Part shown: positions 7,166 through 47,387 of the stretch, piece after piece | How positions within the stretch are numbered: the first letter of the stretch is position 1 | How the letters are laid out: every line of letters begins with the position of its first letter | Assembly (NCBI GenBank): GCA_963842525.1 | Contig: CAWJGT010000009.1 | Coordinates: 1,760,001-1,824,000, forward strand | From: an uncultured Holophagales bacterium | GTDB taxonomy: Bacteria; Acidobacteriota; Thermoanaerobaculia; Multivoradales; UBA5704 | Length of the DNA stretch: 64,000 nucleotides | Direction of reading: 5' to 3' | The notes under the pieces: model-generated | Seen by the model: only the letters and a program-made list of their open reading frames with translations | The model's database searches: none | What the model was told of the DNA's origin: nothing | Position numbers and translations under genes: made by a program

Positions 7166-8287
7166 TCTATTCCACCCCCCCTCGAGCGCTGGCGCCTCGT
7201 CCTCGGCGCACCCGCCGATCCGGCGCTCGGCTGCCCGGCCGGCGACCTCCAGGCCATGGACTCCGCTCTCGGCTGGCTCTACGGCCGGGAGAAGGGCCTC
7301 GCGGCGCGCGACGTCGACGAACGGTCCGGCGGGCGCGAGCCTTCGGCCCTCTCCGTGCCGGAGTGGATCGACGAGGTCCACCGCCTCTTCCCCAAGGAGA
7401 CCATCGAACGCCTGGAGCGCGACGCCATCGAGCGCTATGGCATCGACGAGGTGGTCACCAACCTGGAGGTCCTCGAAAGGGTCGTGCCCAACGAGACCCT
7501 GCTCGCCGCTGTCCTGCGCACCAAGCACCTGATGAACCCGGACGTCCTCGCCCAGGCGCGCCGGCTGGTGGCCGAGGTCGTGCGCCGGCTCCTGGAGGCG
7601 CTGGCGCGCGAGGTGCGCCAGGCCTTCGCGGGCGCCATCGACCGCCGACGCCGCTCGGCCCAGCGCTCGGCACGGAACTTCGACGTCCGGCGCACCCTGC
7701 GGGCCAACCTCCAGCACTGGTCCCCCGAGGAGCGCAAGCTCTACCTGGAGAAGATCTGGTTCTTTGCCCGCATCCGCCGCTTCACCGAGCCCTGGCAGAT
7801 CGTCCTGCTGGTGGACCAGAGCGGCAGCATGGCCATGTCGGTGATCCATTCCGCGGTGACCGCGGCCTGCCTCTGGGGCCTGCCGGGCATGAAGACCCAC
7901 CTCGTGGCCTTCGACACGTCCGTGGTGGACCTCACCCACGACGTGAGCGACCCCGTGGAGCTGCTGATGAAGGTCCAGCTCGGCGGCGGCACCGACATCG
8001 GCCAGGCGGTCGCCTATGCCGAAGGCCTCCTCGAAACGCCGCGGCGCTCGATCGTCGTGCTGATCACCGACTTCTACGAAGGGGGTCATCCCGACCTGCT
8101 GATCCGGCGGGTCAAGGCTCTCTGCGAGCAGGGCACGAAGGTGCTCGGCCTGGCCGCGCTCGACCCGGACGCGAACCCGGTCTACGACCGCGACTTGGCG
8201 GAGCAGCTCGTCCAGGTGGGCGCACAGGTGGGCGCCATGACCCCGGGCGAGCTCGCCGGCTGGATCGCGGAAAAGGTGCGGGCATGA
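7160..8287 (+). CDS. yehP: VWA domain protein (YehP / CoxE-like)
   Basis: RWRLVLG start, MIDAS DQSGSM, GGGTDI, ITDFYEG. Confidence 0.9.
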   Translation: MRSIPPPLERWRLVLGAPADPALGCPAGDLQAMDSALGWLYGREKGLAARDVDERSGGREPSALSVPEWIDEVHRLFPKETIERLERDAIERYGIDEVVTNLEVLERVVPNETLLAAVLRTKHLMNPDVLAQARRLVAEVVRRLLEALAREVRQAFAGAIDRRRRSAQRSARNFDVRRTLRANLQHWSPEERKLYLEKIWFFARIRRFTEPWQIVLLVDQSGSMAMSVIHSAVTAACLWGLPGMKTHLVAFDTSVVDLTHDVSDPVELLMKVQLGGGTDIGQAVAYAEGLLETPRRSIVVLITDFYEGGHPDLLIRRVKALCEQGTKVLGLAALDPDANPVYDRDLAEQLVQVGAQVGAMTPGELAGWIAEKVRA

Positions 8288-10320
8288 CTCCTGGCCGTAC
8301 CGACCTGCTCGCCCTCACGCCCGAGAGCCTGGCCGCCCTGGCCAACGTCGGCCTCGTCAAGCGCGCCCAGAAGGAGCTGGAGCAGGGGAGGGGGCCGCAA
8401 CTCTCCGAAGCGCCCAACGGCACCGTCGTCGGGACCTTTGCGGACGGCGTCGATCGCCCGCCTGCCGCCGGGGGTCCCTCTGCGCGAGGCCCCCTGCACG
8501 TGCGGCGCCGTCACCGTCTGCCGCCACCGGATCGCGGTCGCCCTGGCCTACCGGGCACAGCACGGCGGAGAGCCGCCGCCGGCCGAGGAGAACGCCGCGC
8601 CTCCCTGGTCTCCCGGAGAGATCGACGACGCCACGCTCCTCGCCCGGCTCGGCCGGCGGACGCTCGAACGGTCGCGGTCGCTGCGGCGGTCCGGCTGCAT
8701 TGTCGAGGTCCGCCGTCCGGGATTGCTCGACCCGGTCGCCACCGCGGTCCTCCCGACCTGCACGGTGCGTTTCCTGGTCCCCCGCGACCTCGCCTACGCC
8801 CGCTGCGACTGCCAGGCGCAGCAGGACTGCGAGCACGTGGCCGTTGCGGTCTGGGCCTTCCGCGCCGCCGATGCGCGGGACCGCGAGGCGCAGCAGCTCC
8901 TCGTGCAGGTCGCCGACGAAGCCAGGGGTCGATCCGTCCGAAGGCGACCCCGGCCGACCCCGCGCTGGAAGCGTTGGACAGCGCCATCCGCCTGGGCGAG
9001 GAGATTCTCCTGGAAGGGGTCGTCCATGCCCGCGACTCGCTGGCCCAGACCTTCGCCCTCGGCCGTCAGGGGCTGCTCCGCGCCGGCCTGACCTGGCCGC
9101 TGACCTTATTGGAAGACCTGGAGGAGGCCCTGGCCGCCTACCGCGCCCGCAGCGCCCGCTATCGCGCCGGCCGGGTGACCGAGCTGCTCGCGGAGCTGAC
9201 CGCCCGCAGAAGAGCCGTCCGCGGGACCGGCGAGCTGCCCGTCCCCTTCGTGCTGGGACAGGGAGAGGCGCTGGAGACCCGGCTCGACCACCTGCGGCTC
9301 GTGTCCCTGGGCGCCCGCATCGAGGCCGACGGCCGGGACCGGGAAGCCGAGGTCGTCCTGGCGGACCCGGACACCGCGATGGTCCTCGTGCTGCGCAAGC
9401 GTTGGACCTTTCCGGAGACGGAAGAGCCGCCGGACGCGACCGGCCTTGCCGCGCGCCGCGTGGCCTCCGGAGCCGCCCTGGGAGCCCTCGCCCAGGGCCA
9501 GATGGTCACCCGAGCCGCCCGGCGCCGCGCCAACCGCAGCCTTGTGTTTGGAGATGCGCGTGGCGGAGCCACCTCGGTCACCCCGCAGACCGGCGCCTGG
9601 GACGTGCTGCCCGCGCCGCTCCGCGTGACCCGCATCGCCGACCTCGCCGCGGCCTGGAAGACGCGTCCGCCGCGGCTGCTCCGTCCCCGCGTGCTCGCCG
9701 AAAACGTCCACGTCTTCGCCATCGAAAGCATAGCCGCCCTCGCCTACGCCCCCGGCGAGCAGACGCTGCTCGCAACCCTCCTCGACGCCGACGGTGAGCC
9801 GCTCCGCCTCGCCCGCCCCTACCGCTCCGTAGCACCGCACGCCCTGGACCATCTGGCCGCGGCCCTCATCGGCGCCTGGGGCTCCGTCCGCTTCATCAGC
9901 GGCGAGGTTCGCCGCCACCTCGGCGGCTTCGTCATCGATCCCCTGGCCGTGGTCTGCGACCGTCTCGTGGTCCCGGACCTGGAGAAGGGGACTGCCGAAC
10001 GGCCGCGCCTGCCGCTCGCCGGACCAAGCGCCGACCTGCCAGTCGAAGCCGCCGCAGCCGAAGCGTCAGGGCTTATCGAAGAGGGCGTCCACCAAGGCCT
10101 GCGCCGCGCCGCCCCCAGCTATCCCGACCGCCTCCGAGCCGGCGCCGCAAAGCTGGAAAAGGCCGGCCTGGCCACCGCCGCCACCCGCCTCCGCCGCCTC
10201 GAAGAAAGCCTCCGTCGCGCAAGGGCCGCGACCGAGGAGCAGGAAGAGAAGTGGAGGCAGGTGTCGACCGCCTGGAGCGACGCCGCCCTCCACCTCGATC
10301 TCGTGCGGGAGGTGGGGTAG
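8284..10320 (+). CDS. yehQ: SWIM zinc-finger protein (YehQ-like), two apparent frameshifts (~8452, ~8930)
   Basis: MTPGRTDLLALTPESLAALANVGLVKRA; CTCG..CRH and CDC....CEH SWIM motifs lie in the shifted frame; ATGA overlap with yehP. Confidence 0.8.
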   Translation: MTPGRTDLLALTPESLAALANVGLVKRAQKELEQGRGPQLSEAPNGTVVGTFADGVDRPPAAGGPSARGPLHVRRRHRLPPPDRGRPGLPGTARRRAAAGRGERRASLVSRRDRRRHAPRPARPADARTVAVAAAVRLHCRGPPSGIARPGRHRGPPDLHGAFPGPPRPRLRPLRLPGAAGLRARGRCGLGLPRRRCAGPRGAAAPRAGRRRSQGSIRPKATPADPALEALDSAIRLGEEILLEGVVHARDSLAQTFALGRQGLLRAGLTWPLTLLEDLEEALAAYRARSARYRAGRVTELLAELTARRRAVRGTGELPVPFVLGQGEALETRLDHLRLVSLGARIEADGRDREAEVVLADPDTAMVLVLRKRWTFPETEEPPDATGLAARRVASGAALGALAQGQMVTRAARRRANRSLVFGDARGGATSVTPQTGAWDVLPAPLRVTRIADLAAAWKTRPPRLLRPRVLAENVHVFAIESIAALAYAPGEQTLLATLLDADGEPLRLARPYRSVAPHALDHLAAALIGAWGSVRFISGEVRRHLGGFVIDPLAVVCDRLVVPDLEKGTAERPRLPLAGPSADLPVEAAAAEASGLIEEGVHQGLRRAAPSYPDRLRAGAAKLEKAGLATAATRLRRLEESLRRARAATEEQEEKWRQVSTAWSDAALHLDLVREVG

Positions 10321-10422
10321 AGATGGGATGAGAAGGCCACCCTCCCGGTGCGCAGTGCCTTAAAATGGCCCTGCAAACTGGGAATATTTAAGCGCTGGAA
10401 AGCGCAAGAAAGGAGGGTGGCC

Positions 10423-11481
10423 ATGAAGAATGCTATCAGAGTGGAGGTGGAGGCGGTGGTGGGCGTAGACCTTGGGGACCGTTCGAGTCAGATCTGTCGT
10501 CTGGATCGAGAAACGGGAGCGATCTTGGAAGAGAAGCGTCTGTCGACGACCTCGGCGAGCTTTCAGCGCTACTTTGAAGGGGCAAGCCCGTGTTTGGTCA
10601 TCCTGGAGAGCGGGACGCACACACCCTGGGTGCGGCGGTTGTTGGAATCTTTGGGCCACCAGGTGATCACCGCCAATCCCAGCAAGGTTCGGGCGATCGC
10701 ATCGAGCCTGCGCAAAAGCGACGAGCGGGATGCCCGGTGCCTGGCGCAGTTGGGCCGAGTGGACCCAGAGTTGCTCAGTCCGGTGCACGCGCGAAGCCCG
10801 GAGTCGCAGCAAGCCTTGGCAGTGGTGCGCGCCCGGGAGGGTCTGGTCAAGGTCCGGACGATGCTGGTCAACCAGGTCCGCGGGATGGTGAAGTCGTTCG
10901 GCTTTCGCCTGCCGGGGTGCTCGGCGAAGAGCTTCGCCCGAAGTGCGTCGCAGGCCTTGCCGCAGACGCTGAAGGCTTCTCTGGAGCCGCTGTTGGCGGT
11001 GATCGCTGATCTGAGTGAGCGGATCGGGGGCTTTGATCGAGACATTGAGGCGTGGGCGCAGCGTTTTGCCGTGACGCAGCGGTTGCGCCAGATCAAGGGA
11101 GTGGGAGCGCTGACGTCTCTGGTCTTCGTGTTGACGCTGGACGATCCGCATCGTTTTGCTCGCTCGCGTTCGGTGGGGGCCTACCTGGGATTGGTGCCAG
11201 CAAGTCGAAGCTCGGGCAGCTCGACGCCGCAGTTGCCGATCACCAAGCAGGGCGACCGGCTGTTGCGCTGGCTGCTGGTGCAGGCCGCGCACTACATCCT
11301 CGGTCCTTTCGGCCAGGACAGCGATCTACGCAGGTTCGGACTGGAACTGGCGCGGCGTGGAGGCAAAAACGGCAAGAAGCGAGCGGTGGTGGCCGTGGCC
11401 CGGAAACTGGCGGTGCTGCTGCACCGGCTCTGGATCAGCGGCGAGGATTACGAGCTGTGCCGCCAGCCGGTAGCAGCGTAA
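10423..11481 (+). CDS. IS110-family DEDD recombinase/transposase
   Basis: GVDLG, ILESG, KSDERDA, YLGLVP..SSG, AVARKLAVLLH; AGGAGG RBS before ATG 10423. Confidence 0.95.
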   Translation: MKNAIRVEVEAVVGVDLGDRSSQICRLDRETGAILEEKRLSTTSASFQRYFEGASPCLVILESGTHTPWVRRLLESLGHQVITANPSKVRAIASSLRKSDERDARCLAQLGRVDPELLSPVHARSPESQQALAVVRAREGLVKVRTMLVNQVRGMVKSFGFRLPGCSAKSFARSASQALPQTLKASLEPLLAVIADLSERIGGFDRDIEAWAQRFAVTQRLRQIKGVGALTSLVFVLTLDDPHRFARSRSVGAYLGLVPASRSSGSSTPQLPITKQGDRLLRWLLVQAAHYILGPFGQDSDLRRFGLELARRGGKNGKKRAVVAVARKLAVLLHRLWISGEDYELCRQPVAA

Positions 11482-11554
11482 AAAAGCTCAGGTAGGGGGA
11501 AATCTCAGGTAGGAGAAACCACGGTCGATAGGAGCTCGCGTCGAACCCCCGCTG

Positions 11555-11735
11555 CCGGCGACTGCGCTGGGCGTCTTCAGCCTACGAGGCCGCTGTAGAG
11601 ATAGCAGCGCCGCTGCGGTGGAACCCCATCATGCACCGAGTCCAAGCGACGGACTCCTCGAGAGTGCGGATAGAAGACTCGGGGACAGACGCAGCTCTGA
11701 AGCCAGATAGGGAAGGCCGCCAAGGGCGGCCTTGA
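11555..11735 (+). ncRNA. Putative bridge/seekRNA in the IS1111 right non-coding end (boundaries approximate)
   Basis: Target-matching GGGCGTCT (11569-76) and GTAGAGA (11595-601) lie in a loop closed by GCGCTG/CAGCGC; donor-matching CCCATC (11625-30) and ATAGAAGA (11670-77). Confidence 0.75.
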
Positions 11736-11737
11736 CA
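11732..11737 (+). promoter_or_regulatory. Outward-facing -35 box (TTGACA) at the IS right end; possible junction promoter on circularisation
   Basis: Perfect TTGACA just inside IRR, as in IS1111-group elements; the -10 in the circle would be weak (GAAGAT). Confidence 0.55.
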
Positions 11738-11885
11738 TTCGGGGCCTTCTCATAGAAGACGCCCTACCCCGCGACCACTGCCCTTGTGGCCACCACATCC
11801 GCCAGGGCGTCTCCAAGGCCCCCGCCACCACCGATGCCCCGCCCACGCCATGGTAGGATTCGATCGAGTTGTGGAGGCTCCAGCA

Positions 11886-12227
11886 ATGCAAGCACACAGG
11901 ATGCGCGTCGTGGTTCCGGAAGATCATCGAGCGGTGATCGAGTTCCCGAAGACCATTCGCTCCGGCCCGGTGGAGCTCATCGTGCTCGTGCCACCGGAGA
12001 GCGAAATGGAACCGGACCGCAAGCCTGAAGGGCAGGGTCGTATGGCGGCTCTGGTCGATGACCTCGCCAAGGATCCGCGGCCGTTTCGCGAGCTCTCACC
12101 CGACGAACGCAGTGCTCGGCTCGAAAAAGTGATGGGCGTGGGCCGCGGACTGATGTCGACGAGCGAAGAATTCGCCAGACAGAAGCGCGAGGAAATCGAG
12201 CTCGAGGAACAGAAGTTTGCCCGCTGA
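11886..12227 (+). CDS. Putative antitoxin (VapB-like partner of the downstream PIN toxin)
   Basis: Small ORF overlapping the PIN gene; C-terminal STSEEFARQKREEIELEE resembles antitoxin tails. Confidence 0.6.
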   Translation: MQAHRMRVVVPEDHRAVIEFPKTIRSGPVELIVLVPPESEMEPDRKPEGQGRMAALVDDLAKDPRPFRELSPDERSARLEKVMGVGRGLMSTSEEFARQKREEIELEEQKFAR

Positions 12228-12633
12228 CGGGCTGTACGTCTTCGATTCGTGTGCCGTCATCGCTTTTCTGCAGCGCGAGCCCGGCGCCGAGGTCGTAGCG
12301 GAAATCCTGAAAGATTCCAGGAACCGCTGTTTCATCCACGCCATCAATGCCTGCGAGGTCTACCACGACATCTACCGCCGTGGAGGTGAGGAGGACGCCT
12401 CAGCTCTCGAAGAGATCCTGGCAACTACCGGCATCGAACTGGTAGAAACGATTCCCTCCACCCTCTGGCGGACCGCTGGAAAGCTCAAAGCCGAATGGCG
12501 ACGGATATCGCTGGCCGACTGTCTCGCCATTGCCCTCGCCCTCTTGGAGAATGCCACCCTCCTGACCAGCGATCACCACGAGCTCGATCCGATCGCGCAA
12601 GCGGCGATCTGTCCGATCCGTTTCATCCGGTGA
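12217..12633 (+). CDS. vapC: PIN-domain toxin (VapC family)
   Basis: YVFDSCAVIA, INACEV, ISLADC, LLTSD. Confidence 0.85.
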   Translation: MPADGLYVFDSCAVIAFLQREPGAEVVAEILKDSRNRCFIHAINACEVYHDIYRRGGEEDASALEEILATTGIELVETIPSTLWRTAGKLKAEWRRISLADCLAIALALLENATLLTSDHHELDPIAQAAICPIRFIR

Positions 12634-12634
12634 C

Positions 12635-12751
12635 GCGACGCCGCCCTCCTCCTCGATCTCGTGCGGGAGGTGGGGTAGAGACGCCCTAGTCCGCGACCAC
12701 AACCCTTGTGGCTACCACATCCGCCAGGGCGTCTCCAAGGCTCCGCCACCA
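12635..12751 (+). repeat. Diverged direct repeat of the yehQ 3' end plus downstream REP
   Basis: Matches 10277-10323 joined to 11760-11830 (IS removed) with a few substitutions. Confidence 0.9.
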
Positions 12752-13072
12752 CGAACGCCCGGGACTGGCCTCCACAGCCTGCGGGCACCCCCCCTGGGAG
12801 CGCCGGCGTCCCGCCGGCATCATCAAGACAGTTGGGCCGTAGGCCCGGCCTTCTTGGACTGCGGCGGGAGGCAAGGCGCGAACTCATCGCTGGGATTGCG
12901 GTGCCTATGGCCGGCCGCCGTGGTCGCGGGGGGCGCGGGCCGGCGAGACGCCAGCGCTCCCAGGAAAAAACTGTTCGTCCGGTTCCCAGGCGTTCGTGGT
13001 CGCGGAGGCCGGAGACGCCCTGACGGTGGTGGTCGCCGCGAGGATGGTGGGAACGGACTAGGGCGTCTCTAC
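12675..13072. repeat. GTAG-type REP composite (family C) with a nested GGGAGCGC...GCGCTCCC pair
   Basis: GTAGAGACGCCCTAGT (12675) and ACTAGGGCGTCTCTAC (13057-72) are inverted; inner CCTGGGAGCGCCGGCGTC / GACGCCAGCGCTCCCAGG. Confidence 0.75.
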
Positions 13073-47222: not shown

Positions 47223-47387
47223 CACTGTAGAGACGCCCCGTGGGGCGTCTCCGAGGCGGCAAAGACGGACCGAATTGAAAGGCGTTGGATCGAGCGCGGT
47301 GTCGACGGCCGGGTGACCGCGCACCTGCGCTGGTCTCTGGAACGATGGCGCCGCTACGGAGACGCCCCACGGGGCGTCTCTACAGTG
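47223..47387. repeat. GTAG-type REP doublet (family C), perfect 31-bp inverted pair
   Basis: CACTGTAGAGACGCCCCGTGGGGCGTCTCCG / CGGAGACGCCCCACGGGGCGTCTCTACAGTG. Confidence 0.9.

Follow-up and report, generated by a model that had tools for sequence, protein, structure and literature searches.

The 64,000-nucleotide stretch of contig CAWJGT010000009.1 from an uncultured Holophagales bacterium, hereafter called the window, carries an insertion sequence at positions 10321-11756 of the plus strand. The element is an uncharacterised member of the IS1111 group (IS110 family) in a soil Acidobacteriota-type genome, i.e. it belongs to a known type and is not a new kind of system. Taken together, its features make it very probable that its 3' non-coding end holds the guides of a bridge/seek RNA directed at a GTAG-headed palindromic repeat of the host, with the synthesis of that RNA, its binding by the protein, the circular intermediate and the cut positions extrapolated from relatives. 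An initial annotation, made from the letters of the window alone, had proposed an IS1111-group element with guides aimed at the host GTAG repeat, and this is borne out by the protein domains, the ends of the element, its insertion sites, the order of the guides and their covariation with the targets. Both the guide order and the anatomy of the ends fit the IS1111 group. All features given below are on the plus strand unless indicated otherwise.

Ends of the element and its transposase

By the IS1111 convention the element measures 1436 bp, and the ends at 10321 and 11756 are common to the three copies in the genome (99-100% identity) and to 13 related loci. The initial annotation had placed the element correctly, but had extended it to 11759; the bases 11757-11759 are the second copy of AGA and are owned by the target. 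Both junctions read as it had placed them—GGGGTAG-AGA-TGGGATG at 10314-10330 on the left and CTCATAGA-AGA-CGCCCT at 11749-11765 on the right. The left end starts with the terminal extension AGATGGG (10321-10327), which consists of the core AG and the right-donor bases ATGGG and is kept in 71 related elements. It is followed by the left subterminal inverted repeat ATGAGAAGGCC (10328-10338), the reverse complement of the right one, GGCCTTCTCAT (11743-11753). These two repeats, kept in both groups of homologues described below, are perfect over 11 bp, within the range of ~11-13 bp that characterizes IS1111 elements. The right end is completed by the extension AGA (11754-11756), in line with the 3-bp rule of PMC11187229. 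With the duplicated AGA given to the left end, the extensions are thus asymmetric, AGATGGG counting 7 bp at the left end and AGA 3 bp at the right; the same rule of 7-bp left and 3-bp right extensions is described for IS1111 elements, the duplicated bases being assigned to the left end for ISEc11 (PMC11187229). Concerning the non-coding parts, only 102 nt are found 5' of the gene (10321-10422) versus 275-278 nt 3' of it (11482-11756/9). Subterminal repeats, 7/3-bp extensions and a long downstream non-coding region are the features by which IS1111 is described as separate from IS110 proper (PMC11187229).

The single long frame of the element (10423-11481), identified by its translation and by Pfam, encodes a transposase/recombinase of 352 amino acids. 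It possesses both domains expected in the IS1111 group, an N-terminal DEDD (RuvC-like) domain matching PF01548 (DEDD_Tnp_IS110; 2.4e-18, profile positions 1-152 of 155) and a C-terminal domain matching PF02371 (Transposase_20; 4e-19). The motifs VGVDLG, ILESG, KSDERDA and GLVPASRSSG are present, the last one corresponding to GL-P----S(t)G, the C-terminal motif of IS1111 transposases (PMC11187229). In the alignment with the IS621 transposase (8wt6_A; E 4.4e-8), which spans the KxDxxDA and SG motifs, KSDERDA is positioned against KTDTVDA of IS621 and the SG of GLVPASRSSG against the SG that contains the catalytic serine.

Insertion sites and the host repeat

The host genome (9.95 Mb, 68% G+C, 34 contigs) contains three copies of the element, 99-100% identical over 1439 bp. 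The initial annotation had named insertion of other copies at unrelated sites as an outcome that would speak against it; all three copies are found in one orientation between ...GTAG and AGACGCCC..., i.e. in GTAG|AGACGCCC. Together with the 13 close relatives (13/13), they occupy GTAG|AG(A)CG.. in always the same orientation. One site and one orientation are thus used, without target duplication, as the empty site indicates AG(A) to be all that is shared.

The uninterrupted target GGGGTAG-AG-ACGCCCT is present in a sister copy of the repeat at 12672-12687, where the initial annotation had seen the empty site GGGGTAGAGACGCCCT; no other match with two or fewer mismatches occurs in the window, where 0.07 would be expected and 7 of 100 shuffles yield one. 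The further unoccupied sites that had been proposed are likewise exact occurrences of the 12-mer GTAGAGACGCCC, one at the foot of a hairpin repeat (13061-13072, minus strand; C9:1773061) and two in repeats of a short-hairpin type, one at 47227-47238 (plus strand; C9:1807227; repeat type GAGACGCCCCGTGGGGCGTCTC) and a second at 47372-47383 (minus strand; C9:1807372). These three are among 47 further exact occurrences of the 12-mer in the genome, compared with 2.3 expected from base composition. Since the 12-mer is followed by the inverted arm GG[C/T]GTCT no more than 78 nt 3' in 42 of the 47 sites, the target is the 5' foot of a palindromic repeat.

The repeat interrupted by the element has its left half, ending in GTAG, at 10278-10320, near-identical to 12633-12677 beside the empty site, and its right half, with the hairpin AGACGCCCT ... 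AGGGCGTCTC, at 11757-11815, in the architecture seen in 42 of the 47 empty sites. At least three sub-types of the palindromic target repeat exist in the genome, and 40 of about 48 hairpins have GTA ahead of the arm, on one strand only. A GTAG head is a hallmark of the repetitive extragenic palindrome (REP), and the repeat does have the form of a short, imperfect, GTAG-headed palindrome in many copies. IS621, too, reportedly inserts into REPs. The label REP used in the initial annotation therefore holds by form, but no link to a REP-associated tyrosine transposase (RAYT) was seen at the eight near-full-length Y1 transposase genes checked. The genome has 20 matches to PF01797 (Y1 transposase); the repeat arm was sought within 1 kb on each side of these eight, and none of them is flanked by it, a lone arm lying ~900 bp from one of the eight. 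Three Y1 genes of the IS200/IS605 or RAYT type are located within 4 kb of each other (C34:527792-531498), adjoined by an IS110-family match (C34:529468-529773).

It should also be noted that the interrupted repeat (10278-10320 plus 11757-11820) and the segment 12633-12740, 2.3 kb apart, share ~45 nt to the left of GTAG in addition to the hairpin; the interrupted repeat and the one with the empty site are copies of a longer unit of >100 nt and not of the hairpin alone. The TAG of the interrupted GTAG doubles as the stop codon of a long open frame at 7363-10320.

As regards distribution, only two of 40 related genomes yielded full-length copies, G010 with six (82% identity) and G009 with one (71%). 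The five genomes of the same genus that were searched gave no full-length copy, the best match covering 401 of 1439 bases at 73% identity. The genome of the window contains 19 PF01548 matches, including other groups of IS110-family genes (e.g. C3:1636297, C9:1079395 and C9:63029).

Guide segments in the 3' non-coding end

The predicted bridge/seek RNA core of ~168 nt covers 11531-11698, as delimited by the minimum free energy (MFE) fold, with putative ends and in a region kept in 46 distinct homologous sequences. In that fold it is closed by GGAGCU-c-GCGUC (11531-11542) with GACGC-AGCUCU (11688-11698). Its target-binding module (11556-11612), composed of a 5' loop strand, an inner hairpin and a 3' loop strand, is framed by a stem formed of 11556-11565 with 11604-11612. 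The 5' loop strand carries the top-strand guide GGGCGUCU (11569-11576), complementary to AG-ACGCCC, i.e. the core and the right target. The 3' loop strand carries the bottom-strand guide GUAGAGAU (11595-11602), which equals the left target GTAG plus the core AG plus one or two bases; its part GUAGAGA (11595-11601) is identical to GTAG-AG-A and hence would pair with the bottom strand. Between them is the inner hairpin GCCU-ACG-AGGC (11580-11590), kept in position and longer in distant homologues. GGGCGUCU thus stands 5' of GUAGAGA and overlaps it on AGA; in IS1111 seekRNAs, as described in PMC11187229, the complement of the top strand also precedes the match to the bottom strand, the two overlapping at the insertion point.

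The predicted donor module consists of a candidate right-donor guide, CCCAUC (11625-11630), complementary to G-ATGGG of the left end, a hairpin (11633-11667) with the stem GCACC/GgUGC and the apical stem GAGUCC/GGACUC, and the left-donor guide AUAGAAGAC (11670-11678), which equals the right-end ATAGA plus the core AG, followed by AC matching the right target. AUAGAAGA (11670-11677) repeats the right end and the core. The guide strings of the initial annotation—GGGCGTCT at 11569-11576, CTGTAGAGA at 11593-11601, CCCATC at 11625-11630 and ATAGAAGA at 11670-11677—were all found in their places, as was its hairpin GCCT-ACG-AGGC at 11580-11590.

Within this one sequence the guides exceed chance only modestly. 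When the non-coding end was shuffled 2000 times with dinucleotides preserved, matches as long as those observed (7, 8, 8 and 6 nt) were reached in 679, 178, 144 and 884 shuffles, respectively; 68 of the 2000 contained both target guides and a single one all four. The evidence from the single sequence is only suggestive; that the guide pattern is real is established by three independent insertions at one site, the excess of empty sites and the guide-target covariation in homologues.

Covariation of guides and targets in homologues

A protein scan of species-representative genomes gave 80 loci, nearly all from Acidobacteriota-type metagenome-assembled genomes, and these fall into two groups. The close group (13 loci) exhibits 79-87% protein identity and 77-84% DNA identity over the whole element, with ends as in the element of the window and the same GTAG|AG|ACG.. 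repeat as target. The distant group, i.e. the remaining loci with 53-56% protein identity, has kept the subterminal repeats and the left end AGATG[G/A]G; its right ends are CATGGAAG and its sites are ...TTAYC|AG|GA[C/G]TT.... There the top-strand guides AAGUCCU, AACUCCU and AGUGCCU are the complements of AG-GACTT, AG-GAGTT and AG-GCACT, and the bottom-strand guides UUAUCAGG, UAAUCAGG, AAACCAGG and CUUCACAGG equal the elements' own left flanks together with the core. In L079, a Bryobacterales element, a further pair, GUUCGAG with AGUCCUAC, fits the element's own site, and L090 has the guide GGGACGUC for the right flank ACGTCCC. At least five distinct guide/target combinations were seen in total.

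The covariation of the target-loop segments with the insertion site was scored in 63 elements, of which 47 belong to the distant group and 16, with the three own copies counted in, to the close group; the positions used were 8 in the right target and 7 in the left. Of 83 loci, 20 in which ends, flanks or anchors were missing were left out, and three guides with a wrong anchor were placed manually according to the alignment. Across these elements the segments do change with the site. Close guides fit their own targets at 11.8 of 15 positions and distant guides theirs at 10.3, versus 2.6 for close guides on distant targets and 1.7 for distant guides on close targets. When guides and targets were shuffled over all elements, the observed sum of 674 (versus 399.6 ± 26.2) was reached in 0 of 2000 cases; for the distant group alone, the observed 485 compares with 402.0 ± 8.6 and a maximum of 439 (0 of 10000). 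Judging from these sequences, the comparative evidence can be taken as decisive for the reading of the segments as guides.

This comparison also bears on the idea that the target is chosen by a protein recognising the hairpin repeat and that the short matches in the 3' end are coincidental. Each match taken alone is indeed of a length common in shuffles, and the single-sequence fold is unexceptional. The homologous RNA segments, however, change with the flanks across lineages of different targets while the framing stems stay constant, and in the IS1111 members studied in PMC11187229 the RNA is described as required and reprogrammable. That idea is extremely improbable, and the segments are treated below as guides.

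Core dinucleotide and conserved structure of the RNA

The core was given as GA/AGA in the initial annotation. The homologues point to a shorter one, AG—neither GA nor AGA—because AG is all that their two junctions share and their empty sites have one AG only. The junctions of the distant group are C-AGA on the left and A-AGG on the right, with an overlap of AG only, and uninterrupted sites with a single AG were found in two of the three distant-group host genomes searched (5 matches versus 0 for the reversed control pattern).

The structure was analysed on 46 distinct sequences of the RNA region in a MAFFT alignment (A1) of 218 columns. RNAalifold gave 22 pairs, 5 of them with compensatory changes. 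The stem framing the target module, CGGCG-a-CUGC (11556-11565) with GCAGCGCCG (11604-11612), is paired in 99.8% of cells and contains two doubly changed pairs (AU 36/CG 9/GC 1 and UA 38/CG 8). For the stem of the donor hairpin the figure is 99.1%, and a single pair is doubly changed (CG 39/GC 7); one such pair (GC 38/CG 8) is also found in a short outer pairing of the 5' CCC run with GGG/GCG after the left-donor guide. The structures given here pair 87.7-90.5% of cells, a share that falls to 24-49% once the 3' partners are shifted by one to three columns. Concerning the closing stem and the apical donor hairpin, MAFFT places the two groups in different registers; as read from the alignment by eye, the two look compensatory, the apical donor stem being GAGUCC/GGACUC here and GAGCGA/UCGCUC in distant homologues.

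The stem proposed in the initial annotation, GCGCTG/CAGCGC, differs from the conserved one, and it might be asked whether that fold, along with a GA or AGA core, is the functional arrangement. In the sequence of the window GCGCUG (11564-11569) is able to pair with CAGCGC (11605-11610), and AGA is present at both junctions. Against this, none of the 38 distant sequences allows the GCGCTG/CAGCGC register, while all 46 sequences can form G[C/U]G-a-CUGC with GCAGC[G/A]C, with compensatory changes, and the distant-group junctions and empty sites described above speak for AG alone. The earlier stem and core are therefore very unlikely to be the functional ones, and CGGCG-a-CUGC/GCAGCGCCG is taken as the conserved stem.

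With regard to the donor guides, the left-donor guide of the initial annotation (11670-11677) stands, as it tracks the right end of the element: 8 rows combine AUAGAAG with CATAGAAG and 36 combine AUGGAAG with CATGGAAG, so that AU[A/G]GAAG follows CAT[A/G]GAAG in all 44 rows with a right end found (2 of 46 had none found). This A-versus-G switch in guide and right end is probably a single evolutionary change. A third lineage has the left-donor guide ATGGAAG-AC. The proposed right-donor guide CCCATC is weaker and does not track its end; in the homologues CCCA is kept with one or two mismatches beside the core, and 7 of the 46 rows, in which the left end is AGATGAG (G to A), still have CCCA.

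The one or two bases after the core in the left-donor guide (11677-11678) match the right target and not the element's own left end. This is seen in three lineages: the element of the window has AUAGAAG-AC, L089/L090 have AUGGAAG-AC and the distant group has AUGGAAG-G(A/G). These positions resemble the handshake guides described for IS621 (PMC11208158), with the difference that here they would be on the bottom-strand guide. It is a tentative and rather doubtful proposal that handshake positions are located on the bottom-strand donor guide and that, jointly with them, the 3' GGGG/GGCG segment acts as a switch gating donor binding. If true, handshake and switch would amount to design rules peculiar to IS1111-type systems, with a placement other than in IS621.

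Evidence weighing against the reading and activity of the copies

Several results weigh against an element guided by its own RNA. No RNA run was listed among the sequencing runs that contain the sequence. The MFE fold of this sequence is no better than those of shuffles (z -1.59; 15 of 200 fold as well), and a scan of 9800-12800 against Rfam at E ≤1 gave 0 matches, although Rfam 15 may lack a model of the IS1111 bridge RNA. A consensus scan of 10250-11830 recognised 0 promoters of the sigma-70 type. The shuffle figures for covariation overstate independence, since the counts take in several copies of one genome as well as related lineages. The length of the right-donor 6-mer was reached in 884 of 2000 shuffles, and the 6-mer does not covary with the AGATGAG left ends. 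For the 3' GGGG/GGCG segment two alternative partners are available, the 5' CCC run and the right-donor CCCC, the alignment fitting either. One of the three copies is frameshifted. Finally, contigs of four soil DNA runs compared with 9621-12459 contained no circle or excision joint, such contigs being blind to rare circles; the same contigs cover the element and place it beside other REP-type flanks.

Concerning the frameshifted copy (C25:401714-403155), a one-base G insertion after the equivalent of 10514 makes the frame stop after 51 codons, so that the description of the element as intact in the initial annotation applies to the copy in the window and the copy on C1, both with the full 352-codon frame, but not to that on C25. 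The latter may be either decayed or the result of an assembly error; in addition, the closing stem of its RNA carries extra bases at the foot.

Some of these points would also suit copies that are inactive relics, i.e. an element with its anatomy kept that no longer moves in this genome. Besides the frameshift, the lack of a recognised promoter and the metagenome contigs without joints, the small number of three copies versus 47 free exact sites is in favour of such a state. On the other hand, the full frame is retained in two copies, identity among the copies is 99-100% across 1439 bp, the absence of full-length copies from the five genomes of the same genus fits a recent arrival or movement, and the contigs cannot show rare circles. 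Inactivity is considered unlikely.

Proposed mechanism

What is observed here is the anatomy of the element, its site specificity, the covariation of guides with targets and the conservation of the stems, whereas the synthesis and size of the RNA, its binding by the protein, the formation of a circle and the positions of cleavage would be as in the relatives studied in PMC11187229, PMC11208160 and PMC11208158. In the predicted complex, the DEDD/serine recombinase would bind an RNA of ~170 nt that originates from the 3' non-coding end. In its target module, a pair of short guides, flanking a small hairpin and enclosed by a conserved stem, would read the site from both strands: the 5' guide GGGCGUCU would base-pair to the top strand of AG-ACGCCC and the 3' guide GUAGAGA to the bottom strand of GTAG-AG-A, both together reading the 12-bp GTAG-AG-ACGCCC at the foot of the GTAG-headed palindromic repeat. 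In the donor module, AUAGAAGA would read the element's own right end and core, the weaker CCCAUC facing the left end. The excised circle, with the predicted junction ...CATAGA-AG-ATGGG..., would then be joined to the target by recombination at the AG common to both, always in the same orientation and with no duplication of the target.

Comparison with known systems

The nearest studied parallel is ISPa11, which belongs, with ISEc11, ISKpn4 and ISPst6, to the IS1111-family elements with seekRNAs (Siddiquee et al. 2024, PMC11187229) and is described there as targeting a REP. The element shares with the ISPa11 group, as described in that paper, a DEDD transposase with PF02371, 11-bp subterminal repeats, 7/3-bp extensions and a downstream non-coding region, as well as a complement of the top strand located 5' of a match to the bottom strand, with overlap at the insertion point, and the absence of target duplication. 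It differs from this group by its Acidobacteriota-type lineage, other ends and the target GTAG-AG-ACGCCC, a distinction drawn from their descriptions.

With IS621, as described in PMC11208160 and PMC11208158, the element has in common a homologous recombinase and, as predicted here, the logic of an RNA with two modules, for target and donor, that would each be read on both strands around a core of 2 nt. In contrast to IS621, the RNA is here in the right end and the order of the guides is reversed (PMC11208160). The core is CT in IS621 and AG here, and the subterminal repeats of IS621 are only 2-3 bp long (PMC11208160). The IS110-family elements ISPpu9 and ISPpu10 of Pseudomonas putida resemble the present one by insertion into REPs and by a small RNA gene downstream of the transposase gene (PMC12288879). 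ISPpu9 is described as having extra stand-alone copies of the RNA gene (PMC12288879), whereas here an nhmmer search of the genome with a profile of the 46 RNA-region sequences gave matches only inside the three element copies; there are therefore no stand-alone RNA genes in this genome.

The element is a natural example of a type of RNA-guided recombinase described in 2024, and it leaves the known mechanism unchanged. Its value is in adding a natural IS1111-type system with clear limits from a phylum that has been little studied, with the ends, the AG core, the 12-bp target and the guide positions defined. As its relatives have been naturally retargeted to other sites, it is a usable candidate for testing how IS1111-type elements read donor and target, a question less worked out for their guides than for those of IS621.

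Other features of the right end and of distant flanks

Downstream of the predicted RNA core, a GC-rich hairpin, GGCCGCC-AAG-GGCGGCC (11715-11731), is kept in the close group only and is followed by TTGACA (11732-11737). A consensus terminator scan of 10250-11830 gave a single terminator-like site, on the minus strand and at the level of chance; the hairpin at 11715-11731 was not matched. The string CTTGAC(A), ~25 nt from the right end, is kept in all 30 aligned non-coding ends of both homologue groups. After a spacer of 17-18 nt, TTGACA is followed by GAAGAT, which spans the predicted circle junction and agrees with the -10 consensus at three of six positions. TTGACA and GAAGAT may thus form a junction promoter for the transposase gene, with a weak -10 match.

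As far as the sites of the distant group are concerned, the left flanks of several elements (L032, L034, L044, L056 and L057, as well as L040, L048 and others) end in the recurring ...gtgttgcgtcgacc..ttgagc.ggcacgacTTAYC and ...ccggtaaccgcgtTTAYC, and the left flank ...cgcgggccgaaggccctaaaaggaC recurs in three genomes. By their recurrence, these flanks look like the ends of another repeated or mobile element.

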